Shown one piece after another: positions 28,707 to 51,836 of a stretch of DNA of 64,000 nucleotides (position 1 is the first letter of the stretch; each line of letters starts with the position of its first letter). Under the pieces are notes generated by a model. The model had not been told where the DNA came from. It saw only the letters and a list, made by a program, of their open reading frames with translations, and did no database searches. This DNA comes from Spirochaetales bacterium. GTDB taxonomy: Bacteria > Spirochaetota > Spirochaetia > SZUA-6 > RPPD01. The DNA lies in the NCBI GenBank assembly GCA_016934415.1, contig JAFGSW010000086.1, forward strand, positions 2,042 through 66,041, written 5' to 3'. The translations under genes and the position numbers were made by a program.

Positions 28707-28830
28707 GTAAACGGGGATAAGCGGTAAAATACGATTCTCCTCTCTTCCGTGACGCCGCCAGTATATGCAAGGAACGGTCTTTTTTCAAGCCCGCGCCTGG
28801 CGCTTGCGCCGCGACTTGCCTTCAATTATC

Positions 28831-29751: not shown

Positions 29752-29775
29752 TGGAGAGTGATACTCCATATCAAA

Positions 29776-29841
29776 TGGTTTTCTATTTCCTAAGTCATCG
29801 GCTTGCGATAGACTGTGAGGGCATAAGGAAACAGAAAACCA
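29776..29841. repeat. 66-bp inverted repeat resembling a miniature copy of the MITE termini
   Basis: ggttttctatttcctaag, 29-nt spacer, cataaggaaacagaaaacc. Shares the ATAAGGAAAC core. Confidence 0.4.
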
Positions 29842-29853
29842 TTAAAATCGATA

Positions 29854-29881
29854 ATGCTGAAAAGTATTTGCTTTTCAGCAT
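29854..29881. repeat. Palindromic hairpin H2 (GAAAAG/CTTTTC-core family)
   Basis: atgctgaaaag-tatttg-cttttcagcat, a perfect 11-bp stem, between convergent genes. Confidence 0.5.
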
Positions 29882-29938
29882 AGTACTCCCCAGATTGTGC
29901 AGGACAAAACACGCCGCCCCCCGCCGGAAGGCCGGCCG

Positions 29939-31093: not shown

Positions 31094-31160
31094 CCCGGCA
31101 CTCCTGTTGACCTCACTACTAATATACTATACCATGCAACTTCGTCATAGGGGTCGTCCG

Positions 31161-31967
31161 ATGAAATTTAAAATCATTTTCATCATTTTTAATATCGTCA
31201 TCATCTCGTCGTTTTTATTCATCTTTCTTTCTCCCCTGTTCGTCATGGGGCCGGCCGGGTTTCTCTACCTGCTTCAGCAGAATTACGTCATCGCCGTCGT
31301 TTTTTTCGTCTTTTTAGCGGGATTCAATCTCTTTTTTTTCAAGAACTGGCGGTACTACTCCTACCTGGAGAACGAGGACTGGAATTCCCTGATCACCTAC
31401 CTCGAAGACAGCATTTATCGACGGCGCTCGACGCGCGTCGGATTCATCCGCACGCTCCTCAATGCCTACGTCGTCACCTCGAATATGGCGGGGATCTCGC
31501 GTCTTGAGAAGCATTTTTCCGAGCGTAAGCCGTCCGTTGTGGAGCGATTTTCACTGCAATTCGGCATTCCGTATCTTCTCGGCAATCAACCGCAGGCCGG
31601 GGAGGCGTTTTTCGCGAGTCTGCTCAATCAGCCGGGCACGCACCACCGCGAGTGGATGCGCTGGAATCTCGCCTTCAGCCTGCTCCAGCAGAACAAGATC
31701 GAGCCGGCCAAGCGCGAGCTCGTCGCCCTCCTCGATCACTCGGGCGATTTCGTGCTCACTCTCCTCGTGCTCTACCTTCTCGAGCCCTATTCCCAAAAAG
31801 ACCGGGAAACGGGTGAAAAGGTGTCTCGGGCCCTCGTCGCCTACAGGGGAAAAATCACCAAGCCCCGCTGGGAAGCCCTGTTCGAAGACGCCAAGAAGAA
31901 TATCGAGGTGCTCATGCTCACCCAGATCATCGGCGACGCGAGCAAGTGGTTCTTCCAGGAGGCATAG
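31161..31967 (+). CDS. Hypothetical polytopic membrane protein
   Basis: Start MKFKIIFIIFNIVIISSF. Three N-terminal TM helices then a soluble helical region. Divergent from the HD-GYP gene. Confidence 0.55.
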   Translation: MKFKIIFIIFNIVIISSFLFIFLSPLFVMGPAGFLYLLQQNYVIAVVFFVFLAGFNLFFFKNWRYYSYLENEDWNSLITYLEDSIYRRRSTRVGFIRTLLNAYVVTSNMAGISRLEKHFSERKPSVVERFSLQFGIPYLLGNQPQAGEAFFASLLNQPGTHHREWMRWNLAFSLLQQNKIEPAKRELVALLDHSGDFVLTLLVLYLLEPYSQKDRETGEKVSRALVAYRGKITKPRWEALFEDAKKNIEVLMLTQIIGDASKWFFQEA

Positions 31968-32007
31968 TCGCCGCTGCTTCACTCTGTAAACGCTCCTCCC
32001 TGAAGAG

Positions 32008-32150
32008 TTTATAAGGAAACCAGGAAACCAGGAGAAAACGAAGAAAATTGACGCATTCGATACAATAATTTCAGATTCAATAGTAATTTTGATGGCATAT
32101 TTTTTTACTATTTCTCTTTCGATTGCTTTTTCCTGGATTCCTTATTGACC
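32008..32150. mobile_element. MITE-like element copy E3 (~143 bp)
   Basis: Left tttATAAGGAAACCAGGAAACCAGG, right (revcomp) ggtcaATAAGGAATCCAGGAAAAAgc. Flanked on both sides by tgaagag (32001-32007 and 32154-32160). Confidence 0.6.
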
Positions 32151-32205
32151 TCTTGAAGAGGAGTCGCTGAAATGAGATTATAGTCAAAAGTCAGGTTATT
32201 ATATG

Positions 32206-32234
32206 TTGTCAATCGCCCGGGACGTGGTTACAAT
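32206..32234 (+). promoter_or_regulatory. Sigma70-like promoter (TTGTCA-17-TACAAT) predicted to yield a leaderless mRNA
   Basis: The -10 ends 6 nt before the ATG at 32241, so the TSS is predicted at or next to the start codon. No RBS is possible. Confidence 0.5.
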
Positions 32235-32240
32235 AGTGAC

Positions 32241-33221
32241 ATGGTAGAAGGCCTCTCCAAACGCATCGCCGGGGACTGGGTTGATCTCGGGCAGGCCGGC
32301 TTGTCGTTGACAGCGCTCGCCGAGTACTTCGCCTTTGAGCCCCCGGTGGTCGCCGCGATTTCCCAGAAACTCTCATCGTCCGTACTCCAGGGGGTCGTCG
32401 AATACAAGCAGGGCGTGCTCCAGCCGCTCTTCCAGGTGCTGGAGGACATGAAGTACAAATCAATCGCCTTTGATGCGCTGGCGCGGCAGAATGGCGAGAT
32501 CGGGAGGCTCGTGTTCGTCACCCTCATCCAGCGCCTGTTCGCCTCGGGCGGGCTCAAACCCGAGGGCGGTGAAGAGTCCTCGCCCGCCGCCTCGGAGAAA
32601 CCAGAGACCGACCTCAAGGCGATCCTTGCGGACGTGATGACGCGCGTGCGCGAAGAACCCGCGCTCAAGAACAACACGGCCGTCAAGCTCATCCTCACCC
32701 AGCTCGCCATTTATCAGCGCGAGCGGGAGGTCATGGAAAAACTGAAACCGAATATCAAGGACCGGGAGAAGGCCGTCTCCTTCCGGAAAAATTTCACGGC
32801 CACGTTCAAGAAAATATCCCAGAATATCCGGAAATACTACGGCGAATTCATGGAGTCGCAGCGGGCGGGCGCCGATCGGGACCGGCGGCCGTCGCTCGGC
32901 CGGTACCGGCTGCGCGAGTTGACGGGGCTTTTTACCAGGCAGGCCCGCGAATTTGCGCGCATCCGGTCCACCCTCGGCTTCGCCCTCGATCAGAAATACA
33001 AGGTGCGGGAAATTTGCGTCCACCTGTTCAACGAAAAGAAAGAGTTTATTACCCTTCTCGATCAGGAGACGACCGCGTGCCGCGCGCTCATCGACGATGG
33101 GCCGGGCGGCGGGAAGCGGAACGACGGCCACGAAGTCAGCGTGGCCTTCGCCTCCGAAATCGCCGCGCTGGTGGGAAAACTGGCAGCGCGGGAAGTCAAA
33201 AGCGACCGGGAGTCGGATTAG
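32241..33221 (+). CDS. Hypothetical protein (326 aa)
   Basis: Protein-like composition with charged helical segments. No known domain. Confidence 0.55.
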   Translation: MVEGLSKRIAGDWVDLGQAGLSLTALAEYFAFEPPVVAAISQKLSSSVLQGVVEYKQGVLQPLFQVLEDMKYKSIAFDALARQNGEIGRLVFVTLIQRLFASGGLKPEGGEESSPAASEKPETDLKAILADVMTRVREEPALKNNTAVKLILTQLAIYQREREVMEKLKPNIKDREKAVSFRKNFTATFKKISQNIRKYYGEFMESQRAGADRDRRPSLGRYRLRELTGLFTRQAREFARIRSTLGFALDQKYKVREICVHLFNEKKEFITLLDQETTACRALIDDGPGGGKRNDGHEVSVAFASEIAALVGKLAAREVKSDRESD

Positions 33222-34518: not shown

Positions 34519-37500
34519 ATGCCTAAATTATCGGACATCGAAAAACTCAAGGATATCGTCGACGGTCTCGGCCAGGAGAGGGAAATCCGCGCCAAGCGCG
34601 GCGAGCAGGTCGAAGAAATCGCGCCGCCCGAGCAGGCGCTTTCCTCTGAGGACCTCGATTCCCTTCTCGGGACCGGAGAGTCCGAAGATGCTGCCGGTAC
34701 GCCCCGGCCGACCGAGGAGGTGATTGCCGACGCGCTGGAGGCGGTCGGCTCCGAGGACGCCCAGATAGACGACATTTCGCAGGCCCTGGAGGAAACGGGC
34801 GTCAGCGAGCCGTCTTCCGAGGATACCATGGGACTCGATGTACTCCCGGAAGCTTTCGGCGAGGAGCCGGGCCAAGCCCTGGAGGCTGCTTCGGGCGAAG
34901 AAAGACTAGGAACGGCGTTCGAGGAATTCGAGCTCCCCGATTTCGGCGGAGCCGAGGGCTCAGTGCTCGATGAGGCGGCCGCGGGAGCCGCCCTGGAAAC
35001 TGCCGCCGAACCGGTATCGGAAGCGGTCGAGGAGTTTTCCCTCCCGGAAGACCCCGGCGAAGCGCCCAAACCGACGGAGCCGACTACCGTACCGATTGAA
35101 GAGTTCTCCCTCCCGGAAGGCCTCGGCGAAGCGCCCGAACCGACGGAGCCGACTGCTGTGCCGGTCGAGGAGTTCTCCCTCCCGGAAGGCTTCGGCGAAA
35201 CGCCCGAGCCGGCGGAGCCGACAACCGTTTCGATTGAAGAGTTCTCTCTCCCCGGCGGCCTCGGCGAAGCGCCAGAACCGGCGGAGTCCGCGGCTGAGCC
35301 GGCACCGACTTTCGATCTCTCCGATTTCCAGATCTCCGAGTCTTTTGCCGGCGGTGAGAGCGATGCGGACAAACTTTTCGAATCGGTCCCTGAAACGCCG
35401 GCCGAACCCGCACCGGTGGAAGCCCAGGCCGAAGCGATGGAGGGCCTTCAGGAAATCGAAGCCGGAATCCCCGAAATAACCGGCGAGCCTTCGCCTTCGG
35501 CCCCGGAAACGGGAGGGTTCGAGTTCCCCGATCTGGGCGGCCTCGGCGGACCCGAAACCGAGCCGGGAGAGCCACTACCGTCTTTCGAAACCGAGATTCA
35601 GCCGCAGGCCGAGGAGGGCGAATTCGGCGGGGTGGAGGACAAGCTTTTCGACCTCCCCGAGGGGGAGGACTTCACCGCCGCACCCGCACCGTCGGGCGCT
35701 CCGCCGCCCGGCGCCGAACCGGAGGAGGCCGGAGCTTTCGCCGGCTTCGAAATGCCCGATCTGTCGGAGATCGGCGGCGCCTTGGAAGCGGAACCGCCGG
35801 CGCCCGGGGGGCAGGAGGAAGCCGGGGGGCCGCAGGACGAAGGGCTCGACATCATCGATACCGGTCAATTCGCGATGCCCGAGTTCGAGGGGCGGACGGC
35901 CCCTCAGGCGGCGGAAATACGCGAACTCGGGGAGTCGGGCGCTCCCGAAGAGCTGGCCGGCGCCGAAGACGACCTTCAATTCTCCCAGCACGACTTCGAC
36001 AACATCAAGGCCACCCTGGCCATCCTTCCCCTCAACCTGAAGATCGCCGTCGAGGACCTCATCGCGGATCATGGCCTGCAGGGCCCGAGACTGAGACGGC
36101 TCCTCGACGCGCTCATTGCCGGCGAATCCCCAAAGGCCGTCGCCGCCATCGTTTCCAGCATCACCGGCCGGAAAATCGTTCTGCCCAAAAGCTTCGAAAA
36201 GAGGTCCGGCATCGCCTTCGAGCGGGAGCGGGAAAGTTTCGCCTATTTCCTGCGCACCAAGGGCGCCCGGGCGGCTCTTTTCGCCGGCGCGGCGATCGTC
36301 ATCCTGTTCCTGCTCGCCTACGGGGCCTACGTGCTCGTGTTCCGCCCGCTTTCGGCCGTCGCCGTCTACGACAAGGGCTACGAGGCCATCCAGAAGGACC
36401 TGTACGAGGAGGCGCGGCGGAAATTCGACGAGGCCTCCCGCATCTGGGACTCGAAGGACCAGTATTACCGTTACGCCGAGGCCTTCGTCGCGAGCGCGGC
36501 GGGGAACTACCGCTACGCCGACCAGATGTACCGTATGCTCCTGCGGCGCTACCCCGGCGACGTGAAGGGCATGATCGATTACGCGCGCCTGGAGACGCTT
36601 CAGGGAAATTACGCCCACGCGGATTCGCTCCTCGAAGACGGGGTCCTCAAGCGCGAGCCGTACAATTACGACGCCCTGGCCGCCTGCGCGGACAATTACC
36701 TGACCTGGGCCGAGGAGGACGATTCGAAACTGAAGGACGCCCAGTACTATTACGCGACGCTCGCCGAACATTACCGGGAGCGGACCGCCGCCCACCTTAA
36801 ACGGATCGATTTCCTCATCCGCTCGGAGCGCATCGCGCGGAAGCAGGGCCTGTCCGACGTCGACAATACCAACCTCGTGATCGCCTATGCCGGTTTTCTC
36901 AAGAAAAAAGGCTGGGACCTCGTGGACCCGGCCGTGTACACCGAGATGGCCTCATACCTCATCGACAAGAACGAAACCGACCTCGTGCCCGAGCTTCTCG
37001 AAAAGACGCGAGCGGCCGACCCCGGGTACGCGCCGGCCTGGTACGAGACGGCCCGTAACGAGCGGTTGGCGGGGAAGACCGAAAACGAGCGGCGGGCGCT
37101 GGAAAAGGCCATCGATTTGTTTCGGAACTCCGAACAGGGGAACGCACGCGGCTTCCAGCTCGCCGCCGAGCGGCGGAACTCGCTGGACCGATCGGCCATG
37201 CTGGTGCTCGCGTTGAACCGCCTCGGAGAATACTGGATCGATCAGGGCAAGCCGGAACGCGCCGAAGACCTCCTGCTCGACGCGCAGCGGCTCTACGAGC
37301 AGTCCGCCTCCAGGCTGCAGACCACCCGCTTCGCCTCGGGCGGCGCGTTCGGGCGGCTCTATTACAACCTGGGGAACATCGCCCTCGGCGCCGGGAACGA
37401 CGAGCGCGCGCTCGCCATGTTCTCGGCCGCGGAAAAAAACGGGTTCACCAGCCCGGACCAAACGTACAAAAAGGGCTTTGTTCTCTACCGGCGGAAGGAT

Positions 37501-38103
37501 TTCGCGGGCGCCGCTCTCGAATTCCACCGGGCCGACGGCGAACTGCCCGACAACGAGGCGGTCCTCTTCGCCCTCGCCACCACCGAATACCGGCGATTCC
37601 AGTACCATGTCGCGCAGGGCTACTATCTGTACCTCATCGGGCGGTTGGGGAAAATAAAGGACTCGCTCCCGGCGATTAATGTGGAATCCAACCCGGCCGA
37701 TCGCGACCTCATTACCAACTTCTACATCGCCTACAACAATCTCGGCTGCACCTACTTCAAGATCTCCGGCGGGCGGGACGGCCGGGACATGACCGAGGCG
37801 ACGAATTACCTCCGCAAGGCGAGCGAGCTCTACGACGTCATGTCGCGCGATCCGGACACCCTGGCCCGCCTCGAGGAGACGACCATCGCCGCGCGCGTCG
37901 GAAAGAAGGAAGTCGTCAAGGGCAAGGGCGCTGCGGCCCGCTATCTCAAAGCGCCGGCCCCCTTCTACAACCTCGACGTGATCTTCCACGGCAAGGCCGA
38001 TACGATCGTGCTGGGTGAAAAAATCGACGTGCTCATCTACGACATCCTGCCGCGAAATCTGGAAAAGCCCGAGCTTCTCTCCACCCGCCTCACCTCCCAG
38101 TAA
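34519..38103 (+). CDS. Large membrane-anchored TPR-repeat protein with an acidic N-terminal repeat region
   Basis: Acidic Glu/Pro-rich N-terminus with 23-aa tandem repeats, one TM helix (ALFAGAAIVILFLLAYGAYVLVF), and a ~600-aa TPR-like C-terminal region. Confidence 0.8.
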   Translation: MPKLSDIEKLKDIVDGLGQEREIRAKRGEQVEEIAPPEQALSSEDLDSLLGTGESEDAAGTPRPTEEVIADALEAVGSEDAQIDDISQALEETGVSEPSSEDTMGLDVLPEAFGEEPGQALEAASGEERLGTAFEEFELPDFGGAEGSVLDEAAAGAALETAAEPVSEAVEEFSLPEDPGEAPKPTEPTTVPIEEFSLPEGLGEAPEPTEPTAVPVEEFSLPEGFGETPEPAEPTTVSIEEFSLPGGLGEAPEPAESAAEPAPTFDLSDFQISESFAGGESDADKLFESVPETPAEPAPVEAQAEAMEGLQEIEAGIPEITGEPSPSAPETGGFEFPDLGGLGGPETEPGEPLPSFETEIQPQAEEGEFGGVEDKLFDLPEGEDFTAAPAPSGAPPPGAEPEEAGAFAGFEMPDLSEIGGALEAEPPAPGGQEEAGGPQDEGLDIIDTGQFAMPEFEGRTAPQAAEIRELGESGAPEELAGAEDDLQFSQHDFDNIKATLAILPLNLKIAVEDLIADHGLQGPRLRRLLDALIAGESPKAVAAIVSSITGRKIVLPKSFEKRSGIAFERERESFAYFLRTKGARAALFAGAAIVILFLLAYGAYVLVFRPLSAVAVYDKGYEAIQKDLYEEARRKFDEASRIWDSKDQYYRYAEAFVASAAGNYRYADQMYRMLLRRYPGDVKGMIDYARLETLQGNYAHADSLLEDGVLKREPYNYDALAACADNYLTWAEEDDSKLKDAQYYYATLAEHYRERTAAHLKRIDFLIRSERIARKQGLSDVDNTNLVIAYAGFLKKKGWDLVDPAVYTEMASYLIDKNETDLVPELLEKTRAADPGYAPAWYETARNERLAGKTENERRALEKAIDLFRNSEQGNARGFQLAAERRNSLDRSAMLVLALNRLGEYWIDQGKPERAEDLLLDAQRLYEQSASRLQTTRFASGGAFGRLYYNLGNIALGAGNDERALAMFSAAEKNGFTSPDQTYKKGFVLYRRKDFAGAALEFHRADGELPDNEAVLFALATTEYRRFQYHVAQGYYLYLIGRLGKIKDSLPAINVESNPADRDLITNFYIAYNNLGCTYFKISGGRDGRDMTEATNYLRKASELYDVMSRDPDTLARLEETTIAARVGKKEVVKGKGAAARYLKAPAPFYNLDVIFHGKADTIVLGEKIDVLIYDILPRNLEKPELLSTRLTSQ
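35029..35304 (+). repeat. Four tandem 69-bp coding repeats (EEFSLPEGLGEAPEPTEPTxVPx)
   Basis: Units begin at 35029, 35098, 35167 and 35236, each near-identical. Confidence 0.8.
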
Positions 38104-39700: not shown

Positions 39701-39786
39701 CCGACCACCCGCACACAGGTGGTCGGACTACGCAATTACATAAATGAAGGAAAGTGATGACAAACTCTCAATGAGTTTGTCATCAC
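39701..39786. repeat. Two further strong hairpins in the GH31-ilvE spacer
   Basis: ccgaccacc-cgcacaca-ggtggtcgg at 39701-39726, and gtgatgacaaactc-tcaat-gagtttgtcatcac at 39754-39786 with a perfect 14-bp stem. Confidence 0.55.
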
Positions 39787-39854
39787 CCTATTGATCGTGA
39801 TGCACCCGCATTCTGATAATTTTCCCCGCTTTCTCATTCTCATGCACGTGATCA

Positions 39855-42389
39855 TTACGCATGGATTTCCACCGTAATCGGCAGCCGGTCGACCGGCGGA
39901 TGGATGACGATCCAATCGCCTTCGGTCTTCACCCGCTCGCCCCGCAGCTCCTCGCCGTTCGCGGTCACGCGGCCGGGCGGAGCCGTGTTCCCGAAGCGGG
40001 CCAGGCGGAGCACGACCGAGGAGAACCGGCCGAGCGGCGCCGTCTTGAGGCCGTCGGTCTGCTCGATCAAAACCGACGTCCGCCCATCGGCTTCATGCCC
40101 GGAAACGCCGACCAGCGAGTATTGTTTTTCGGCATAGGCCAGGGTTTCGCCGTCGTCCAGGTAAAGCTCGCCGGAGAAGGAGGCCGCCGGGAAAACGTCG
40201 AGGGAGAGGGTTTGCTCGTATAGTTGGTCCGATGAGGTGAAGGCGCCGGGCTTGCTCGCGAGCAGCGGCAGCACCGCCCCCCGGCGTACGAACAGGAGCA
40301 GGCGAGCGAGCGGCACGTCGAAGGTTTCCTCCTTTCCGCCCTGGTGGATCTCGTGCGTCCGGTACTCCACCCATTCAGTGGAGGGCGCTTGAGGGGAACC
40401 CGGGAAATAAACGTCCCGGCCGAACCGGCCTTTCTCGAGCACCGGCGCGACGAGCAGGTCGCCGCCGCAGAGGTATTCCGTGTCCGCGACGCCGGGTCGC
40501 ACGCAACCGGGATCGCCGGGGAAGTCGTAGGCGAGCGGCCGGCAGACCGGATCGCCGGTCACCGTGCCCTCCCGGATCGCGGCGTAGAGGTAGAGCAGGA
40601 ACGCGTAGCGCAGCCGGATAAACTCGACGGAAATCGATTCGATTTCATCGCCGAAGGCCCACATCTCCTGCGGCGGCATCCCGTTCGCCGTGTGGTTGCG
40701 GTGGAAGGGAAGGAAGGTGGCCGCCTGGAGGAAGCGGACGAAGAGCTCGGGCGTGGGCGCGCCCCAGAACCCGCCGATATCGGGTCCGGTCATGATCTGG
40801 CCGGAAAGGCCGAGGTTCATCACCATGGGCAGGCTCATGCGCAGGTGCGACCATTCGCTCTTGATGTCGCCGGTCCAGGACGATGCGAACCGCTGGATCC
40901 CGGCGTAGGACGAGCGCGTGAAGAGAAACGTTCTTTTCCCCGGGCGGAGCCGGTCCAGCCCCGCGGCCGTCGCCCGGGCCATGAGAAAGCCGTAATAGTT
41001 GTGAAGGCTCGCGTGGTCGCGGCGGGCCAGCGTTCCGCCGGCCGCTGCCGGCTCGACCGTGTGGACGACCGCGTCGGGCAGGGTGCGGCGCGCGGTGAAG
41101 GCCGCCGGCTCGTTCATGTCGATCCAGAAGCCGTCGACGAGCTTGTCCGTATGCACTTTAAATTGTTCGCCCCACCATTGCGCCGCGGCGGGCGACCCGA
41201 AATCCGGAAACGCGGCCGGCCCGGGCCAGACGGGCGCCTGCGCGATCGCGCCGTCGGGGAAGGCGAGGAAACAATCTTTCGCCTTCCCCTCGCGGTACAC
41301 GTCCCACTCCTCGTCCGCTTTCAAGCCCGGATCGGTGATGAGGACGGGATGAATGCGCCGCTCGCGCAGGCCGCTCAAGAAACCGTCAGGATCGGGAAAT
41401 CGCTCCGGGTCCCAGGTGAAGCAGCGATAGCCGCGCATGGCGCCGATGTCGACGTGCAGCGCGTCCAGAGGGATGCCCCGCTCCCGGAAGCCGCGCGCGA
41501 TCCCCCCGAGCCTATCCGCGCTCTCGTTCGCCTCCCAACGGGAATGGTGGTGGCCGAGCGCCCAGAGGGGCGGCAGGCGGTAATATCCGGTGAGGGCCGA
41601 GAATTGCCGCACCACGTCGCGAAGGCGCGGACCGCCCAGCAGGTAGAACGCGAGCGGGCCCCGCGCTGCGCCATAGCGGAAAGTCCCCGGCCGGCCGCGC
41701 CGCGGCAGCCTGAACCGGGTGTAATGCGGGTTGTCGAAGAAAAGACCGAAGGCCGAGCCGTTCTCTTCCAAAACGATCGCCAGCGGGCAGGACTGGTAGA
41801 GCGGATCCGAGCCCGGGTACATGTCCGAGAAATCGGTGTTCCACATGACGTAGGTTTCGCCGTTTTTGAAAAGCCCGCCGGTCTTTTGGCCGAAGCCGAG
41901 GGAGCGCGCGGTCCGCGGCGGCCGAAACGCGAATTCGACCCAGTCGCCCGCCATGGCGGGCCGGCCCTCCCCGAAGAGCTCATCGTCGCGGCGGCGCGCC
42001 CCGAAAAGCCCGGCCTCGAGGTCGATGACGAGCTCCGGCCCTCCGCCTGATCCGGCCGCCGCGACCGAAAGGCGCCCGCCGTGTTCCCGAACCGCGAGCG
42101 GGAGCGGGATCTTGTCGACCACGGCGTAGGAAAAATATTCCCCGTCGTAAAAAGGTGTTGTCCGGACCCGCGCAAAGGAAACCACGATTTTCAATGCTCC
42201 CGCCTGAAGGGCGGATACGTCTACCCGGGCATTCGCGAATCGGGCGGTGAAAAGCGCGCCGCTTTCGTCGAGACCGTATTCGCGCAACCCGCCGAGCGTC
42301 CGGCGGGGCAGGCCGGGGAAGCGGCGGTTGAGCAGGGGCTGCAGCACGTGGGTGGCGAGCTTGACTTTTAAAAAGGTTGCGAGGTCCAC
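39855..42389 (-). CDS. Glycoside hydrolase family 31 alpha-glucosidase
   Basis: GFWIDMNEPA catalytic-nucleophile region and GH31 WTGD motif. GTG start with a GAGGA RBS. 844 aa. Confidence 0.9.
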   Translation of the reverse strand: MDLATFLKVKLATHVLQPLLNRRFPGLPRRTLGGLREYGLDESGALFTARFANARVDVSALQAGALKIVVSFARVRTTPFYDGEYFSYAVVDKIPLPLAVREHGGRLSVAAAGSGGGPELVIDLEAGLFGARRRDDELFGEGRPAMAGDWVEFAFRPPRTARSLGFGQKTGGLFKNGETYVMWNTDFSDMYPGSDPLYQSCPLAIVLEENGSAFGLFFDNPHYTRFRLPRRGRPGTFRYGAARGPLAFYLLGGPRLRDVVRQFSALTGYYRLPPLWALGHHHSRWEANESADRLGGIARGFRERGIPLDALHVDIGAMRGYRCFTWDPERFPDPDGFLSGLRERRIHPVLITDPGLKADEEWDVYREGKAKDCFLAFPDGAIAQAPVWPGPAAFPDFGSPAAAQWWGEQFKVHTDKLVDGFWIDMNEPAAFTARRTLPDAVVHTVEPAAAGGTLARRDHASLHNYYGFLMARATAAGLDRLRPGKRTFLFTRSSYAGIQRFASSWTGDIKSEWSHLRMSLPMVMNLGLSGQIMTGPDIGGFWGAPTPELFVRFLQAATFLPFHRNHTANGMPPQEMWAFGDEIESISVEFIRLRYAFLLYLYAAIREGTVTGDPVCRPLAYDFPGDPGCVRPGVADTEYLCGGDLLVAPVLEKGRFGRDVYFPGSPQAPSTEWVEYRTHEIHQGGKEETFDVPLARLLLFVRRGAVLPLLASKPGAFTSSDQLYEQTLSLDVFPAASFSGELYLDDGETLAYAEKQYSLVGVSGHEADGRTSVLIEQTDGLKTAPLGRFSSVVLRLARFGNTAPPGRVTANGEELRGERVKTEGDWIVIHPPVDRLPITVEIHA

Positions 42390-42396
42390 GTCGTCC

Positions 42397-44628
42397 TCAC
42401 TTTCTCTTTTTCCCCCGGTCCTGACCGCGCGCCTGAAACATCAGTCCGGCGATCGAGGCCAGCGACGCGAGCATGAGAAGAATCCGCACCGGCAGGGGAT
42501 TGGCGATCGACTCCGCACCTCCGTACAAAAGGCACATTGCGACGATGAGGGCGGCGATGAATCCCCCCGCCTTCGCCGAGAGGGCGGCGGCGAAGAACAT
42601 CGGGTCCCGTCGTTCATTTGTTTTATCTCGCGCGGTGGCGGCCGCGTCGGCGGTGAAGAGGAGGGACAAGGCGAGGAGCAGGGCGATGGGAAAGGCGAGG
42701 AGAATCAGGGCCGCCAGGCCCCAGATCCAGGGCAGGGGATACCGGTAGGTCGTTACGCGTCCCTGGGCGAGCTCCGTGACGCCGCTCGCGGTCACGAACC
42801 AGGTCGAGCCGTTACGCGCGAAGAGCACGTCCTCCACCTTGTCGGCGGCCAGCCCGTCGGCCCGCGTCAGGACGCGTTTCCCCGCCGGGCCGGAGATGAA
42901 GCAGCCTGAGTCGGTGGCGACGAACAGCCGGCCGTCGGGAGCGGTTCTGATCGCGCGGACTGCGTCGCTCGGCAGGCCGTCGGCGCTCGTCAGATAAGTC
43001 CAGGCGGTTCCGGAAAGGCGGGCCACGCCCCGGTACGTACCCAGGAAGACGACGCCGTCCTCGCCGATTTCCAAGGAAGTGATCGTATCATCCTTCAGGC
43101 CCTTTCCCGTTGTGTACTCGGTCCAGTCGGACCCGCTCAGGCGATAGGCGCCCCTTTCCGTGCCCACCCAGAGATCGCCCTCCGGGCTCAAGCCGAAGGC
43201 GGTGAGCGGCGCCGCGGGATCTTTCCCGCCGGGCCGCTTCGGCGCGAATTCCACCCAGCGCGAGTTCTCGCGGTCGAGGAGCGAGACGCCGACGGGCGTC
43301 AGGAACCAGACGGCGCCGCCGCGCTGCATCACGGCGATCACCCGGTTGTCGATCAATCCGGAGGCCTTGGAATAGTGGGTCCAGGCCGCGCCGTCGAAGA
43401 AGCTGGCGCCGCCTTCCGTGGCGAACCAGACGCCGCCGTCCCCGGCCGAGATCGAATTGATGCGGTCGTCGATCAGCCCCTCCCGCCGGGTGACCTGCGA
43501 CCAGGCGCCCGCTGCGAAGCGGGAGGCGCCGCGCTTGGTGCCGATCCAGACGCCGCCGTCGGGAGCCTGGGCCGCGGAGACGGCGCAGTTCCAGCGCAGG
43601 CCCGATTCGTCGGGCGCGAATCCGGTCGCGGCGAGGACGAGAAGTCCCGCGGCGAGCGCGGCCGATCCCGCCACGCCCAGCTTTCTCTTGTCCAGTTTCG
43701 CCGCAAGCGGCCGGAGGAACGGCGGGAAAATGAGCCCCGCCGCCAGGAAGGCGACGACGGAAAGGCGTGTGAATTCCGCGTCCACGAGCATCAGGTCCCG
43801 GCCGACGAAATAAAGCGACGCGGCCAGGGCGGCGAGCGCGAAGGATACGCACGCTTCGGCGCGCAGGAAGCGGGAGAAGGCGCGGTGTGACGCCGCCGTC
43901 CTCAATGCGCGCGCGGCGGCCGCGGGAAAAGACGCGTCGTGCCGCCGGGATGAATCTTTGGCCGGCTTCTCGCGCACGGTGAAGAAGGCGACGCTCACGA
44001 TGACGGCCGCCGGGAGTATCAGGAGAAAGACCGACCACTGGAACGAAGCGGTCGGGTCGAGGCCGGGGAACATGGTGAAGAAACCGGGGAGGAGGGCGAC
44101 CGGGAGGAGCGCGCCCGCGAACAGCAACGCGGTCTGGAGCGCCGCCAGGGACGCGCGATCCGCATCCACGGGCAGACTCGAGTAGCCCAGCGACAGGTAC
44201 GGAGCGAACGATACGGCCGCTCCGGCGCCCGCGGCCAGCGAAAAAAGGAACACCAGGACGAGGTTGACCGCGGCCGGACCGGCCGCGAACGGCAGAAAAA
44301 CCAGAAGCGAGGAAAGCGCGAGCAGCGGCAGGCCGGCGAGGAGAAACGCCCGGCGTCCGCCCAGAGCCGTGCGTGATCTGCCGGCTTGAAAGGCGGCGAG
44401 CGGCGAGACGACCGCGAAGGCGAGAAGCCCGAGGAGCGCGGCAAACCAGAGGGAGCGGATGTTGTCCGGGGGAAGTGCGGGCAGAAAGCGGGGCAGGCCG
44501 TCCTTGAGGCGTTCGAGCGGTGGTGAGAAAAACGCGGCGCCGCCCGCCGTCAGGGAGACGAGGATCAGGCCGTAGCCGGCGGTGGAGAACGCGTACAGAA
44601 AGAATCGTAGCCCGCGTAATCGTTTCAC
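42397..44628 (-). CDS. Polytopic membrane protein (MFS-like N-terminal ~9 TM) with a periplasmic beta-propeller of two-component-regulator-propeller-type repeats and 3 C-terminal TM helices
   Basis: Likely GTG start at 44628 with a GAGGAGG RBS; the ORF-track N-terminus MLYFILVYFIV is translated promoter DNA. Repeats DGGVWIGTKRGASRF / DGGVWFATEGGASFF / DLWVGTERGAYRL. Ends 8 bp before the GH31 start. Confidence 0.6.
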   Translation of the reverse strand: MKRLRGLRFFLYAFSTAGYGLILVSLTAGGAAFFSPPLERLKDGLPRFLPALPPDNIRSLWFAALLGLLAFAVVSPLAAFQAGRSRTALGGRRAFLLAGLPLLALSSLLVFLPFAAGPAAVNLVLVFLFSLAAGAGAAVSFAPYLSLGYSSLPVDADRASLAALQTALLFAGALLPVALLPGFFTMFPGLDPTASFQWSVFLLILPAAVIVSVAFFTVREKPAKDSSRRHDASFPAAAARALRTAASHRAFSRFLRAEACVSFALAALAASLYFVGRDLMLVDAEFTRLSVVAFLAAGLIFPPFLRPLAAKLDKRKLGVAGSAALAAGLLVLAATGFAPDESGLRWNCAVSAAQAPDGGVWIGTKRGASRFAAGAWSQVTRREGLIDDRINSISAGDGGVWFATEGGASFFDGAAWTHYSKASGLIDNRVIAVMQRGGAVWFLTPVGVSLLDRENSRWVEFAPKRPGGKDPAAPLTAFGLSPEGDLWVGTERGAYRLSGSDWTEYTTGKGLKDDTITSLEIGEDGVVFLGTYRGVARLSGTAWTYLTSADGLPSDAVRAIRTAPDGRLFVATDSGCFISGPAGKRVLTRADGLAADKVEDVLFARNGSTWFVTASGVTELAQGRVTTYRYPLPWIWGLAALILLAFPIALLLALSLLFTADAAATARDKTNERRDPMFFAAALSAKAGGFIAALIVAMCLLYGGAESIANPLPVRILLMLASLASIAGLMFQARGQDRGKKRK

Positions 44629-44871
44629 CGACGCCTCCTCGTTTTTTTTTATGCGGGCGCCGAAGCGCTCGACGACGGCCGGGGCGACCCGGTCCCGTCC
44701 GCTCCCCGGCCCGGAGTCAGAATAATCGGAAATGAAAAAAGAATCAACAAATCCGGGCTTGACAAGTACTATAAAATATACTAATATAAAATATAGCAAT
44801 ACGCGAAGGAGAGGGCGCTGCGTACTGGGGGGGCCCTCTCCTTTTCCATTGCGTCACCCGGGGGAGGGGCG

Positions 44872-45387
44872 GTGTCGTCGATTGATCTCGTGCTGCTGGG
44901 TCTTCTGGCCCGGCAGCGGCGGAGCGCCTACGATCTGGCCAAGGAAATAGCGCGGTACGAGCTTGACGGCGTCGTCCGCTTGAGCATCCCGGCCATCTAT
45001 AAAAACGTCAAACACCTGGAAGAGCGGCGCTACCTCGAGCGGCGCGAAACGCGCCGCGGCGAGATGCCGGAGAAGACGATCTACTCGCTCACCGCCCTCG
45101 GCCGCGAGCGGTTCCTCGCGCTCATGGAGCAATGCGCGGCGGAGAAGGTCCGCTATCGATTCGATTTCAATCCGGTCATCCTCAATCTGGACGGCGTGCC
45201 GAAACAGCGGCGCGGGAAGCTGCTTCGCCTCATGAAGGAGAGCCTGGCGGCGGGGAGAAAAGAGCTGGAGGAATCGCTTGAGGCGTGGAAGGAAAAATCG
45301 ACCACCGCCGGCCTCATTCTGGGACAGGTGGAGTCGGTGAGCCGGGCGCTGGGCGAATGGATCGACGACGCGTTGAAGAAAACGTGA
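44872..45387 (+). CDS. PadR-family transcriptional regulator
   Basis: LVLLGLLARQRRSAYDLAKEI ... IPAIYKNVKHLEERRYLERRE winged-helix signature. Confidence 0.8.
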   Translation: MSSIDLVLLGLLARQRRSAYDLAKEIARYELDGVVRLSIPAIYKNVKHLEERRYLERRETRRGEMPEKTIYSLTALGRERFLALMEQCAAEKVRYRFDFNPVILNLDGVPKQRRGKLLRLMKESLAAGRKELEESLEAWKEKSTTAGLILGQVESVSRALGEWIDDALKKT

Positions 45388-47951: not shown

Positions 47952-50324
47952 ATGAATCGCATGAAAGGCATCGGCGCGCTGCTCAAGGCATTGACCCTGG
48001 AGGAAAAGGCCTCCCTCATCATCGGGGCCGGGAATTGGACCACGGCGGCCGTGCCCCGTCTCGGGATCCCGTCGCTCTTTCTGGCCGACGGGCCGCACGG
48101 CGTGCGCCGCGTCGTGGACGAGCAGGGGCTGGGCATTCCCGGGCTGCCGGCCACCTGCTTCCCCACCGCCTCCTGCCTGGCCTCGACCTGGGATACGGCC
48201 CTCGTCGAGGAGCTGGGCCGGGCCCTTGGCGGCGAGGCCAAAGCCCTGCGCGTCGACGTCCTGCTCGGGCCGGGCGTCAACGTACGGCGCACGCCGCTGG
48301 GCGGGCGCAATTTCGAGTATTTTTCGGAGGACCCGTGCCTGGCCGGGGAGCTCGCGGCGGCGTTCATCCGCGGGGTGCAGAGCCGGGGCGTGGGGACCTC
48401 GCTCAAGCACTACGCGGCCAACAACCAGGAGTACGAGCGCTTCACCGTCGACGCCGTCGTCGACGAGCGCGCGCTGCGCGAGATCTACCTCGCCGCTTTC
48501 GAGACCGCGGTGAAAAAAGGCGCGCCCCGCACCGTGATGGCGGCCTACAACCGGGTGAACGGCGTGCGCGCCTGCGAGCACGCCGCGCTCATCGACGGAG
48601 TGCTGCGGCGCGAGTGGGGTTTCGACGGGGTCGTCGTCTCCGATTGGGGCGCGGTCAAGGACCGGGTCGTCTCATTGAAAGCGGGCCTGGATCTGGAGAT
48701 GCCCGGCCCGCGAAAGGACCGTCGCCGCGCCGTGGTGAGGGCGGTCAAGTCGGGAGCGCTGCCTCCGCGCGTTCTCGACCGGGCCGTGAGGCGGGTTCTG
48801 CGCCTGGCGGCGGCCTGCGCCGCGACATCCAAGGGCGGCGCGACGGATTGGGAGGCCCATCACTCGCTCGCCCGCCGGATCGCCGGGGAGGGTTTCGTGC
48901 TGCTGAAGAACGAGGGCGTGCTGCCGCTCGGCGATCCCGTGCGCGTCGCCGTCATCGGCCGCTCCGCCCCCGAGCCGTACGTCCAGGGCGGCGGCAGCTC
49001 CCGCGTCGCCGCCCGCCGCGTCGACGTCCCCCTGGACGAGATTCGCGCCCGGGCGGGCGGGGCGGAAGTATCTTTCTGTGAAGGATACCCGGCGGGTCCG
49101 GTCATCGATCAAAGGCTCGTGGACGAGGCGGCCGAACTCGCCCGCCGCGCCGAGGTCGCTCTTGTCTTCATCGCCCTCGACGAATTCGTCGAGTCCGAGA
49201 GCTGCGACCGGACGACGACCGATCTCCCGGCGAACCGGGTCGCCCTCATCAAGGCCGTGTGCGCCGCCCAACCGCGGACGGCGGTCATCCTCGGGAACGG
49301 GGGTGTGGTGACGATGGAGGAGTGGATCGACGGGGCCCCGGCCGTGCTCGAGACCTGGATGGCGGGCGAGGCCGGGGCCGGGGCAATCGCCGACGCGCTC
49401 TGGGGGGACGTCAATCCCTCGGGGAAGCTCCCGGAAACCGTGCCGCTCCGCCTGGCCGACACGCCGGCCTTCATCAACTACCCCGGCGAGAACGGCCGGG
49501 TGCGCTACGGCGAGGGGTTATTCGTCGGATACCGCTATTACGATTACCGGGGCGCGCCGGTGCGGTTTCCCTTCGGTCACGGCCTCTCCTATACGACCTT
49601 CGAGTACGGCCGGCTTTCATTCTCGGAGACGTCGTTCAAGGACGCTGACGGCCTCACCGTTTCGTTCGAGATCGCCAACACCGGAACGCGGGCGGGGAGA
49701 GAAACGGCGCAGGTGTACGTCCGCGACGTCCGCGCCTCGCTCGCGCGGCCGGTTAAGGAGCTCAAGGCCTTCGTCAAGACGGCGCTCGAGCCGGGCGAGC
49801 GGAAGGCGATCTCGGTTCATCTCGATTTCCGCGCCTTCGCCTTCTACCATCCGGGACTCGGCCGCTGGGTCGCCGAGAGCGGCGAGTTCGAGATCCTCGT
49901 CGGCTCCTCGGCCGCCGACATCCGCCTGCGGGGCGCGGTGCGGCTGCGCTCGACCGCAGGCGAACCGAGTTTGCTCGCCCCCGGATCGTCGGTGCGCCTG
50001 TGGCTGGACGACGAGCGCGGCGGTCCGCTCGTGCGGCCGCTCGTGGAGAAAATCGAGGCCGCGCTCTCGAAGGAGGGTGGCGGCGGGATGCTGGGATTTA
50101 TCCTGGAATCGCCGCTCGAGCGCCTCCTCCGCCAGTGGGAGGAGCCGCTCGCCCTCAACGCCGACGAGACAATGGCGGATATCATGCGGCGACTTCACGG
50201 GAAGTTTTCCGCGCCAAAACAGCCACGGAGACCCGGAGGACACGGAGGAGGAAAAGGAAACAATAAGGAAGCCAGGAAACCAGGAAAAAGGAATCTAGGA
50301 AAAGGGATCCAGGAAAAGAAATAG
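47952..50324 (+). CDS. Glycoside hydrolase family 3 beta-glucosidase whose last ~20 codons and stop are supplied by a MITE-like element
   Basis: GH3 motifs (GFDGVVVSDWGAV; KHYAANNQE). The tail ...NNKEARKPGKRNLGKGIQEKK* is encoded by aataaggaagccaggaaaccaggaaaaagg... Confidence 0.9.
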   Translation: MNRMKGIGALLKALTLEEKASLIIGAGNWTTAAVPRLGIPSLFLADGPHGVRRVVDEQGLGIPGLPATCFPTASCLASTWDTALVEELGRALGGEAKALRVDVLLGPGVNVRRTPLGGRNFEYFSEDPCLAGELAAAFIRGVQSRGVGTSLKHYAANNQEYERFTVDAVVDERALREIYLAAFETAVKKGAPRTVMAAYNRVNGVRACEHAALIDGVLRREWGFDGVVVSDWGAVKDRVVSLKAGLDLEMPGPRKDRRRAVVRAVKSGALPPRVLDRAVRRVLRLAAACAATSKGGATDWEAHHSLARRIAGEGFVLLKNEGVLPLGDPVRVAVIGRSAPEPYVQGGGSSRVAARRVDVPLDEIRARAGGAEVSFCEGYPAGPVIDQRLVDEAAELARRAEVALVFIALDEFVESESCDRTTTDLPANRVALIKAVCAAQPRTAVILGNGGVVTMEEWIDGAPAVLETWMAGEAGAGAIADALWGDVNPSGKLPETVPLRLADTPAFINYPGENGRVRYGEGLFVGYRYYDYRGAPVRFPFGHGLSYTTFEYGRLSFSETSFKDADGLTVSFEIANTGTRAGRETAQVYVRDVRASLARPVKELKAFVKTALEPGERKAISVHLDFRAFAFYHPGLGRWVAESGEFEILVGSSAADIRLRGAVRLRSTAGEPSLLAPGSSVRLWLDDERGGPLVRPLVEKIEAALSKEGGGGMLGFILESPLERLLRQWEEPLALNADETMADIMRRLHGKFSAPKQPRRPGGHGGGKGNNKEARKPGKRNLGKGIQEKK
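50262..50300. repeat. Left terminus of a partial or truncated MITE-like element copy E5 overlapping the GH3 3' end
   Basis: AATAAGGAAGCCAGGAAACCAGGAAAAAGG. No convincing right terminus found downstream. Confidence 0.4.
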
Positions 50325-50645
50325 GGAAACTGAAAAGGGGAATGAAGGAAATAGATATGCTTATCGCTTTTTTACCGAAATCCTTCCCTGATTTTTCCAA
50401 AACTCTTCCTTTTTTTTTCAAGTTCCGATTATAGGTACGAGTGTATGGTGATTCGCATTCTCCAGACCGGATTATCTTTTCCATTTTTCTTCTTCTTTAT
50501 CCGTGTCATCCGTTCCTATCCGTGGTTCCCTCCCTCGTTGAATGAATGCCGCGAATTGTGTTCCCCCGCAAAATGCTATATAATGATGGCATCAACCGTC
50601 GGCATGAGCCGGACACCCGCACTTCCACCGGAGAAAGGAACGACG

Positions 50646-51836
50646 ATGATGACTGCTTTTTCCGCAACCAGGAAATACTTCTGCCTCGTCCTTGCGGCGG
50701 CGCTGTTTTTGGGCGCCGCGGGGGGGGCGTACGCCCAGGGGAAGGCCGTGAAGATCGGCTTCGTGAAGATCGAGAACTCGAGCGAAGACCCGCGCTACGA
50801 CTACCTCGAGGGTATCGTGAGCGGCACCCTGCTCTACGACCTGTCCAACGCCCCGGGACTCGTCGTCGTGGATCGGGCCTTGCTTGACAACATCCTCAAG
50901 GAGCAGGAGCTTATTTTAAGCGACCTGGTCAAGGCCGACAACGCCGTCCGCGTCGGGAAGATTCTCGGCGCCGACTACCTCCTCAAGGGCGATTACGTTT
51001 TCCTCGGAAACGAAATCCGGCTGAACGTCTCCATCATCAACGTGGAATCGGCCAAGACCATGACCTTCAAGGAGACCGGCTCCACGGAAAACCTGGTGCA
51101 CGCCGTGTGCGAGCGGATCATCGAGCGCCTCACGGGCAACCAGGTCGCCCTGCGCTCGGACGAGCACGACCGGTCGATCATCTCGCTCAAGGACGAGAAG
51201 CCCGGTTCGATCGGCCTGTTCTGCAACCTCATCGACGCCGAAATTTTCGTGGACGACCAGTTCGTCTGCTACTCCACGGGCAAGGCCAACGTGCCGAGCG
51301 AGCTCACCGGTCTGAAGCCGGGCAAGCACACGGTGCGCGTCCGCCTGACGGGCTTCGGCGTGGTCAAGGCGCCGGAGATCACCTTCTCCGACTGGCAGCA
51401 GGCGGTGGACGTGAAGCCGGGACAGCGGCAGGTGGTCCGCGCGCAGATAACACTTTTCACCTACCAGCTCTACGACCTGCAGAAGCTCCTCTCCGACCAC
51501 GTCCGGATCGAAGCCGCGGATTTCGGCAAGCCCTTCTCCAAGGAAATGGAATTCGAATACGTCGACCGCGCAAGCAAAAAGCACAAAGGAAATCTGAAGC
51601 TCTCGCTCGCCGCCGCGGAAGCGCAGGCCGAGCTCAAGGCCGAGCTCACTCTCGACGGAAAGAAACGTTCGTACTCGCTCACATGCCCGGCCAAGAAAAG
51701 GACGAAGAGCGATGAAACCTTCGGCAAGGTGGATATTAAACTTGAGTTGGACTACTACTATCCCGACCGTTATTGCCGAATAGAATATCGCGTCACGCGG
51801 AACGACATCAGCCAGGACATGTGGCACAAGGAATAG
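50646..51836 (+). CDS. Secreted protein with an N-terminal CsgG-like domain
   Basis: Start MMTAFSATRKYFCLVLAAALFLGAAGGAYAQG (signal peptide) with a GGAGAAAGGAA RBS; the ORF-track start at 50445 is an extension. Pattern VKIGFVKIEN...DRALLDNILKEQELILSDL...VGKILGADYLLKG...IRLNVSIINVESAKTM resembles the CsgG fold. Confidence 0.65.
   Translation: MMTAFSATRKYFCLVLAAALFLGAAGGAYAQGKAVKIGFVKIENSSEDPRYDYLEGIVSGTLLYDLSNAPGLVVVDRALLDNILKEQELILSDLVKADNAVRVGKILGADYLLKGDYVFLGNEIRLNVSIINVESAKTMTFKETGSTENLVHAVCERIIERLTGNQVALRSDEHDRSIISLKDEKPGSIGLFCNLIDAEIFVDDQFVCYSTGKANVPSELTGLKPGKHTVRVRLTGFGVVKAPEITFSDWQQAVDVKPGQRQVVRAQITLFTYQLYDLQKLLSDHVRIEAADFGKPFSKEMEFEYVDRASKKHKGNLKLSLAAAEAQAELKAELTLDGKKRSYSLTCPAKKRTKSDETFGKVDIKLELDYYYPDRYCRIEYRVTRNDISQDMWHKE

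Follow-up and report, generated by a model that had tools for sequence, protein, structure and literature searches.

Bacterial major facilitator superfamily (MFS) transporters are usually described as stand-alone proteins of twelve transmembrane (TM) helices. In XylP-XylQ of Lactobacillus pentosus, a glycoside transporter of the GPH family is followed by a cytoplasmic glycosidase of family GH31. The YicJ-YicI pair of Escherichia coli shows the same transporter family (MFS_2), gene order and import-then-hydrolyse logic as the locus that we describe here, with 9 nucleotides (nt) between the two genes compared with 7 nt in our case. The locus lies in a 64,000-nt stretch of DNA, referred to below as the window, from a Spirochaetales bacterium (GenBank assembly GCA_016934415.1, contig JAFGSW010000086.1, positions 2,042 to 66,041 of the forward strand). 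Its transporter gene encodes a protein in which a complete, seven-bladed Reg_prop β-propeller, predicted to be periplasmic, is inserted between TM9 and TM10 of a GPH-type fold.

This combination sets the protein apart from each of its closest described relatives. YicJ is a plain protein of 460 amino acids (aa) and 12 TM helices that, unlike the window protein, has no periplasmic domain and retains the aspartates of TM2; YicI is an α-xylosidase, whereas the GH31 enzyme of the window groups with α-glucosidases. MelB, the prototype of the GPH family (PDB 7L16, 7L17 and others), shares with the window protein the fold, twelve colinear helices, the motif of loop 2-3 and the columns of Arg141 and Asp351, but the equivalents of its Arg52, Asp55, Asp59, Asp124 and Asp354 are not conserved and the 289-aa propeller is additional. 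The best sequence and structure matches of the propeller are BT4663, BT3049 and BT4673, hybrid two-component sensors of Bacteroides in which the seven-bladed Reg_prop domain is likewise periplasmic. Sensors of the BT4663 type are dimeric, contain two tandem propellers and a Y_Y_Y domain, and drive a cytoplasmic kinase/regulator, whereas the window protein has one propeller, no Y_Y_Y domain and no output.

A folded extracytoplasmic domain in the same TM9-TM10 loop is found in mammalian PepT1 and PepT2 (SLC15) and OATPs (PMC4597091, PMC8154325). These are eukaryotic proteins of different MFS subfamilies with Ig-like or Kazal-like inserts; the core of the window protein is MFS_2, not PTR2 or OATP, and the likeness is architectural only. 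The use of this loop in spirochaetes is independent of, and convergent with, that in PepT1/2 and the OATPs. Bacterial MFS fusions mostly involve C-terminal cytoplasmic domains, according to Willson et al. (2019) as cited in the review PMC8154325, and our literature searches, from which one survey of bacterial MFS fusions was missing, returned no description of a Reg_prop or any other β-propeller inserted in an MFS transporter. The gene and its parts are as follows.

42397..44628, minus strand: the fused gene, encoding a 743-aa GPH/MFS_2 transporter with the inserted propeller; GTG start, TGA stop
44634..44640, minus strand: ribosome-binding site GAGGAGG, 5 nt before the GTG
43609..44628, minus strand: TM1-TM9 of the MFS core, residues 1-340, with the motif GRSRTALGGRR in loop 2-3 and a long loop 6-7 on the cytoplasmic side (Pfam MFS_2, AlphaFold helices, hydropathy, colinearity with MelB and YicJ)
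42742..43608, minus strand: seven-bladed Reg_prop β-propeller, residues 341-629, 289 aa (Reg_prop profile, 28 strands, Foldseek, PDB)
42397..42741, minus strand: TM10-TM12 and a basic C-tail, residues 630-743 plus the stop codon (MFS_2 match after deletion of the insert, helices X-XII of MelB)

Profile searches recognized both components. Pfam MFS_2 (PF13347) matched residues 68-332 over profile positions 43-306 of 427 (1.5e-18, 67 bits against a cut-off of 27), and Reg_prop (PF07494) matched the whole protein at 8.8e-16 (56.4 bits; cut-off 20.4) and the excised insert alone at 4.7e-19 (66.5 bits). Hydropathy shows nine hydrophobic helices up to residue 336 and a further three beyond residue 639, and together with two AlphaFold models it places TM1-TM9 at approximately residues 6-335, 28 strands at 349-628 and TM10-TM12 at 632-733. 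When AlphaFold was supplied with six sequences, confidence was limited to the propeller; supplied with 105, both fused and insert-less, it modelled the whole chain with a predicted local distance difference test score (pLDDT) of 91.6 and a predicted TM-score (pTM) of 0.90. That model contains 12 long helices, a short cytoplasmic helix in loop 6-7 and seven four-stranded blades accounting for the 28 strands, and the strands of the propeller have pLDDT >90. The first-pass annotation of this DNA, made from the letters alone, had proposed about nine MFS-like N-terminal helices, Reg_prop-type repeats forming a periplasmic propeller between TM9 and TM10, and three further helices at the C terminus, all of which these analyses and the predicted topology bear out; neither outcome that it had named as a refutation, a cytoplasmic propeller or profiles without an MFS or propeller match, was obtained.

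Structural comparison with Foldseek leads to the same families. The best match of the propeller was BT4663 (E 1.6e-12), followed by BT3049, BT4673 and PorZ (E 1e-12 to 1e-10 for BT4663/BT3049), with a root-mean-square deviation (rmsd) of about 4 Å over about 300 columns on BT4663/BT3049. The core matched MelB with a TM-score of 0.56-0.61 on the target and an rmsd of about 4 Å, as well as MFSD2A, and the whole chain aligned to mammalian PepT2/PepT1. A sequence search of the PDB returned 3v9f (1e-29), 4a2l (3e-27) and plant SUC1 (1.5e-4).

The predicted topology is the canonical N-in/C-in arrangement of the MFS, with the insert in loop 9-10 facing the periplasm. Lysine and arginine together number 4 in the N-tail, 4 in loop 2-3, 9 in loop 6-7, 4 in loop 8-9, 4 in loop 10-11 and 6 in the C-tail, compared with none in the short outward loops 5-6 and 11-12 and 4 in the longer outward loop 1-2; this positive-inside distribution assigns both termini to the cytoplasm and the propeller to the periplasm. 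The basic motif of loop 2-3, D/G-R-x-x-x-x-x-G-x-R-R, is present as GRSRTALGGRR (residues 83-93), of which R84, S85, G90, R92 and R93 are invariant in the window protein's own clade, termed clade A below. The longest cytoplasmic segment, loop 6-7, is about 35 aa, and Pfam and NCBIfam detected no cytoplasmic output domain (histidine kinase, GGDEF, AraC or similar) anywhere in the window protein. A classical sensor is therefore unlikely, so that of the original suggestion of a transporter or sensor coupling a periplasmic propeller to a channel, the general idea is consistent with the evidence and its sensor variant, in the classical sense, is not favoured.

The fused proteins form two clades: clade A, consisting of the window's P0001 with P0002-P0006, P0023 and P0032, and clade B, consisting of nine proteins (P0028, P0170-P0176 and P0179). 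Used as a query, the window protein without its propeller found only P0001 and P0002, because its Ala/Leu/Gly-rich sequence swamps the word index. The equivalent query derived from P0028 found about 100 plain GPH proteins, 445-475 aa long and in most cases encoded by genomes of Spirochaetota, that are 40-62% identical to it with 97-100% of the query covered, and these insert-less relatives thus read straight across the deletion point; insert-less spirochaete proteins of ~450 aa reach 50-62% identity. The propeller-less sequences of the family are colinear with MelB and YicJ of E. coli over all twelve helices, and the insert maps to loop 9-10 of MelB with Trp342, Asp351, Arg363 and Lys377 of that protein in register. 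In silico deletion of residues 341-629 extended the MFS_2 match of the window protein from profile positions 43-306 to 43-386, the score rising from 67 bits to 73.6. Where the insert would begin and end, insert-less proteins show just a five-residue loop (TGL-LPVNP-xWGL), whereas both fused clades have TGxxxNPxGLxxN[CY], about 290 aa and then YxxxxP-xIW[GA]L. On either side of the insert the linkers (GLRWN..., ...P.IWGL) are short and strongly conserved, which, with the pTM of 0.90 for the whole chain, points to a fixed rather than a floppy attachment. The propeller is a clean insertion of a complete domain into an ordinary spirochaete GPH transporter, one already paired with GH31.

The architecture recurs in at least 17 clusters at 90% identity, from different samples; because the scans were pattern-based, the counts of fused proteins are lower bounds. 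All fused clusters that bear an organism name come from uncultured Spirochaetota genomes. When 1.84 billion representative proteins were searched with a profile, the top places went only to the fused P0004-P0006, P0028 and P0032 and the N-truncated P0023, the remainder of the best 150 matches being multi-propeller sensor proteins; the non-fused matches carry PF07495 and are of the sensor type (histidine kinase, GGDEF). P0170-P0176 and P0179 were added by the search with propeller-deleted P0028. Among the 185,579 species representatives of GTDB there are at least two fused loci, both in uncultured Spirochaetaceae, and a pattern-based metagenome scan found no fused members beyond those already in hand. 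Metagenome and genome loci with tblastn matches that seemed to reach the flanking helices, which were considered as further MFS fusions, proved to be ordinary sensors with 0-2 TM segments.

How often the insertion arose was addressed with the TM core and with the propeller. In a neighbour-joining tree of the core, rooted on MelB and YicJ, clade A including P0023 and P0032 was recovered in 43 of 60 bootstraps and clade B in 40 of 60, the window's clade forming a long branch, and monophyly of all fused proteins in 7 of 60. In BLAST searches with the excised propeller, where scores are dominated by the repeat consensus, each clade matched consensus-like sensor-kinase propellers as well as it matched the other clade. 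The insertion point and the phase of the repeats are identical to the residue in the two clades, which makes one event the more parsimonious explanation, and a single insertion ancestral to both is favoured. The clades differ in base composition, the clade-B genomes having a guanine-plus-cytosine (GC) content of 38-42% compared with 61% for the window, and the fused loci as a whole span 38-42% and 57-68% GC.

The start of the gene can be assigned from its homologues. The mechanically listed open reading frame (ORF), 42397-44799 on the minus strand, begins at a TTG, whereas the GTG at 44628 opens a frame of 743 codons that ends at the TGA of 42399-42397. The GAGGAGG before it is kept in six aligned clade-A loci, one of them reading GAGGGGG, and the 743-aa product is identical to the public protein P0001, 'MAG: MFS transporter [Spirochaetales bacterium]'. 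The N terminus MK.LRG is shared by all the close homologues, namely the window protein and five relatives of 39-75% identity, and the GTG at 44628 is thus the correct start and the longer TTG frame spurious, as had been suspected from the ribosome-binding site. In public databases the fused proteins are annotated as 'MFS transporter' or 'GPH family symporter'.

The second element of the system is the operon, in which the transporter gene is followed by that of the glycosidase.

39855..42389, minus strand: GH31 glycosidase, 844 aa, WIDMNE nucleophile motif, no signal peptide (Pfam/NCBIfam, sequence comparison)
39751..39789, minus strand: terminator-like hairpin (stem of 17 bp) at the end of the two-gene operon

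Between the transporter stop (42399-42397) and the GTG of GH31 at 42389 there are 7 nt, not the 8 bp first reported, and a GAGGA lies inside the end of the transporter gene; the close spacing itself stands and suggests that the two genes are translationally coupled. The identification of the neighbour as a GH31 α-glucosidase was sound, since it matches MGAM (8e-119), 5djw (2e-98), Ro-αG1 and glucosidase II, compared with 7e-42 for the α-xylosidase YicI. All fused loci with a readable downstream gene have a GH31 gene there, at a distance of 4-12 nt, namely L001, L002, L003 and L007 in clade A and L048, L127/L128 and L129/L130 in clade B; L006, which encodes P0005, is followed by a cut fragment of 149 aa with no Pfam match, and the contig of P0032 ends at the gene, so that neither can be read. 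The insert-less P0183 precedes a GH31 gene by 12 nt, and other insert-less relatives adjoin GH4 or unrelated genes. Full-length identity among the GH31 enzymes of clade A, of clade B and of the P0183 locus is 40-45%; these enzymes share the motif W[IVN]DMNE and have no signal peptide. Because the pairing is common to all three, the GPH-then-GH31 operon is ancestral and the propeller a later addition. Beyond the operon, clade-B loci have different neighbours (radical SAM proteins, cyclic-nucleotide-binding (cNMP-binding) proteins and integrases).

Two observations concern the P0183 locus. In sequencing run SRR13394437, the fused clade-B protein P0173 (L128) and the insert-less P0183 (L132) occur on different contigs, each with its own GH31, and fused and insert-less versions thus coexist in one community. 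Directly upstream of the P0183 pair (L131 4198-6123 / L132 490-2334) is a gene whose product, 614-641 aa long, contains at least seven hydrophobic segments and has no Pfam match; the 641-aa form was considered as a free-standing propeller and rejected on account of its multiple TM segments and lack of a Pfam match.

Transcription of the operon is probably controlled from the intergenic region that separates it from a divergent regulator gene.

44872..45387, plus strand: PadR-family regulator, 171 aa, divergent (Pfam; clade-A synteny)
44719..44747, minus strand: probable promoter of the transporter-GH31 operon, TTGATT-17 nt-TATTCT, as read from the sequence
44758..44796, no strand assigned: AT-rich block with a tandem 15-nt repeat, probably the PadR operator, on grounds of conservation

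All of the seven clade-A loci that were examined (the window, five close homologues and P0032 at 27% identity) carry the PadR gene upstream of the fused gene; it was not found beside the clade-B fused loci examined. The block around TTGATT-17-TATTCT is conserved in six related loci. The 15-nt repeat, TACTATAAAATATAC / TAATATAAAATATAG on the plus strand, forms an AT-rich island in a context of 61-68% GC that overlaps a promoter-like site for PadR (TTGACA-17 nt-TAATAT, plus strand), and the AT-rich block and both promoter-like sites are nearly invariant across the six loci. The element at 44758-44796 is a probable operator with divergent promoters, through which PadR probably controls the transporter-GH31 operon. 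The PadR leader contains, at 44806-44843 of the plus strand, a hairpin of 12 bp, AAGGAGAGGGC...GCCCTCTCCTT, whose loop includes the invariant segment ACTGGGGGG and after which comes TTTTCC. All six clade-A loci keep this hairpin, with compensatory changes at 6 of the 20 predicted pairs (for example, an AU/GC split of 3:3 and a GC/AU split of 4:2), and it may serve as an attenuator or terminator-like element, or as a site bound by protein. No Rfam family was matched anywhere in the window, the hairpin included, and no unusual degree of structure was seen in the transporter mRNA leader (z +1.4); there is thus no sign of a riboswitch.

The two clades differ sharply in the membrane core. At the columns of MelB Arg52, Asp55 and Asp59, at least 99% of 90 insert-less relatives have R, D and D, and eight of the nine clade-B proteins keep all three, the ninth keeping only Asp59 and having His at the Asp55 column. 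The window protein has Leu68, Phe71 and Ser75 at these positions, and other clade-A members have similar non-acidic residues, so that no member of the clade has an acidic residue at the TM2 cation site (Asp55 and Asp59 of MelB). GC pressure is not the cause of this loss because P0032, which is of low GC content, also lacks the aspartates. Retained in clade A are the GRSRxxxGxRR motif, Arg158 (the MelB Arg141 column) and the Asp351 column; a lysine or arginine lies one position from the MelB Lys377 column, where the alignment is ambiguous by one residue.

Rates of change also differ between the domains. Identity to P0001 within clade A is 81/66/61/55/49% for the propeller compared with 73/53/47/43/33% for the core, and in the closest clade-A pair the nonsynonymous rate (dN) is 0.12 for the propeller and 0.18 for the core. 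In clade B the order is reversed, with the core 77-84% and the propeller 46-56% identical. Between clades A and B the core is 28% identical, below GH31 at about 41%; between clade B and the insert-less P0183 it is 58% identical, above GH31 at about 45%. The ratio of nonsynonymous to synonymous rates (dN/dS) in clade A is 0.39-0.47 for the core, 0.33-0.39 for the propeller and 0.23-0.29 for GH31, with dS probably underestimated in these GC-rich genes. The core ratio is below 1, which argues that the clade-A core is still under purifying selection.

Taken together, homology, genomic context and conservation lead us to suggest, with about even confidence, that the fused protein is an α-glucoside importer with a built-in periplasmic glycan-binding module that feeds the cytoplasmic GH31, and that in clade A it is probably independent of cations. 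The propeller, seated on the C-terminal bundle of six helices at its periplasmic side, would capture or select at the transporter entrance an α-glucoside oligosaccharide or a larger glycan of which it is part. The 12-helix core would then translocate the sugar by alternating access, and the co-transcribed GH31 α-glucosidase would hydrolyse it in the cytoplasm. Disaccharide ligands of BT4663 occupy the entry faces of the propellers (PMC5121618), and by analogy an oligosaccharide is the most likely ligand here. The case for cation independence comes from the absence in clade A of the TM2 aspartates that bind the coupling cation of MelB: the MelB variant D59C has lost all cation coupling but retains sugar binding and translocation, acting as a uniporter (PMC8329300), and may be the better functional analogue of the window protein. 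Clade-A proteins would accordingly be uniporters, in which flux is pulled by periplasmic capture at one end and cytoplasmic hydrolysis at the other.

Several observations weigh against this proposal. The core is very divergent, scoring 37.9 bits against the cut-off of 231.35 for NCBIfam TIGR00792 (gph), and of the 109 columns that are at least 90% conserved in the 90 insert-less relatives, clade B keeps 106 but clade A only 53. Clade A has lost further polar or charged core positions (D23, Y125, T138, Y140, N266, R269 and D666), and its core may have changed function or lost transport altogether. The window protein has a single propeller and no match to Y_Y_Y (PF07495) in Pfam. PadR proteins are not, to our knowledge, typical regulators of sugar operons, and the hosts of the fused proteins are all uncultured.

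The extent of this remodelling keeps alive the alternative that the clade-A core is no longer a transporter but a scaffold or transducer for the propeller, a receptor that possibly informs PadR, with the substrate of GH31 entering the cell elsewhere. Besides the 53 of 109 columns and the lost equivalents of Arg52, Asp55 and Asp59 and the other polar residues, such a receptor would account for a propeller that is better conserved than the core in clade A, by identity and by dN (0.12 compared with 0.18), for the opposite pattern in clade B (core 77-84%, propeller 46-56%), for a core that has diverged between the clades (28%) more than GH31 (about 41%), and for the linkage of PadR to the fused gene in clade A only, down to 27% identity. 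It would, however, have no output domain and only short cytoplasmic loops with which to signal, and it does not sit easily with the retained gating motif of loop 2-3 and other residues of the MFS fold and cycle, a core dN/dS well below 1, or the tight operon with an intact cytoplasmic GH31 in every readable clade-A locus; we consider it quite improbable. A less drastic possibility, which we still regard as unlikely, is that the propeller acts as a regulatory lid that responds to a signal in the periplasm, for instance a polymeric glycan or another metabolite, and allosterically gates the transporter with no hand-over of substrate and no outgoing signal. Reg_prop propellers are sensor domains of histidine kinases and GGDEF proteins. 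All of the non-fused matches found here are of that type, and the short conserved linkers and pTM of 0.90 suggest a fixed geometry able to pass a conformational change to TM9 and TM10. Nothing separates such a lid from substrate capture, but the operon consists of a transporter and a hydrolase only, and our literature searches produced no precedent.

β-Propellers are also common scaffolds for protein interaction, and the domain might instead be a docking platform for a periplasmic or outer-membrane partner, such as a glycan-degrading enzyme or a porin, that would couple the production and uptake of oligosaccharides in space. PorZ, among the Foldseek neighbours, works within a protein complex, and the insertion loop is that of the extracellular domain of PepT1/PepT2, which the whole chain also matches in Foldseek; for the PepT1 domain, binding of trypsin and a docking role have been proposed (PMC8154325). 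The nearest relatives of the propeller are glycan sensors, however, and in the loci examined no conserved candidate partner gene lies beside the operon in both clades, which leaves this explanation with little likelihood. That the fusion is an artefact, whether of a chimeric assembly or of gene calling that joined a transporter gene to a sensor gene, has a negligible chance of being true: although the source is a metagenome-assembled genome, the reading frame runs through the gene uninterrupted, at least 17 clusters from independent samples and two GC regimes (38-42% and 57-68%) share the architecture, and the insert interrupts the MFS domain exactly in a loop, with both halves needed for the 12-helix fold.

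Other genes of the window include several with possible links to glycans or to cyclic di-GMP (c-di-GMP). The 45508-47883 gene (minus strand; the listed TTG start is probably too far upstream) encodes a protein of about 790 aa without TM helices, which combines LacI-type Peripla_BP_3/1/4 matches lacking a helix-turn-helix, an unassigned stretch of ~300 aa and an HD-GYP-type HD_5 domain, and which is kept beside the PadR-transporter-GH31 unit in L001, L006 and L007. It may be a cytoplasmic, sugar-responsive c-di-GMP phosphodiesterase. At 25503-27884 (plus strand) lies a gene for a protein with a 7TM receptor-like N terminus (HisKA_7TM) and PAS, GGDEF and EAL domains, and the presence of both proteins points to a rich c-di-GMP network in this genome. 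A GH3 glycosidase (47952-50324, plus strand), for which the best NCBIfam match, below cut-off, is of the exo-α-(1->6)-L-arabinopyranosidase/β-glucosidase type, is followed by a CsgG-like protein (50445-51836, plus strand); the pair also flanks the locus in L001, which may be mere synteny among related genomes. Further away are four consecutive ORFs of 316-417 aa (28765-33221, plus strand) with no Pfam match at E<=1e-4, and a gene for a 1194-aa protein with weak TPR signals only (34519-38103, plus strand), in roughly the corresponding position to which L001 has a large protein with only faint TPR matches.

Both parts of the fused protein come from well-known families and the logic of the operon is classical, whereas the propeller-in-MFS architecture is rare and so far confined to uncultured Spirochaetota. 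In uptake dependent on substrate-binding proteins (SBPs), reviewed in PMC8276074, an extracytoplasmic module captures the substrate for a membrane translocator. The capture logic proposed here is the same as in OpuA and GlnPQ, ABC importers with fused substrate-binding domains, and in the TRAP and TTT systems; this likeness is functional and hypothetical only, for neither part is homologous and the binding modules of those systems are Venus-flytrap SBPs, not propellers. It is tempting, if rather doubtful, to go further and regard the window protein as the first MFS transporter with its own extracytoplasmic binding domain, in whose lineage capture by the propeller and hydrolysis by GH31 have replaced ion coupling. 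Were this true, the protein would be a single-polypeptide counterpart of binding-protein-dependent uptake, and the replacement would explain how the otherwise near-invariant aspartates could disappear from a protein whose best-conserved part is now the propeller.

The practical value of these observations is modest, lying in the annotation of proteins now called just 'MFS transporter' and in the glycan-uptake biology of uncultured spirochaetes. Of wider interest is the set of natural controls that the family provides, in the form of insert-less relatives (50-62% identical to the propeller-deleted core of a fused homologue, and at least one with GH31), a fused clade with an intact cation site and a fused clade without one. 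This trio opens the questions of how an external domain couples to a rocker-switch mechanism, whether a binding domain can substitute for ion coupling, and which ligands Reg_prop propellers bind outside two-component systems.

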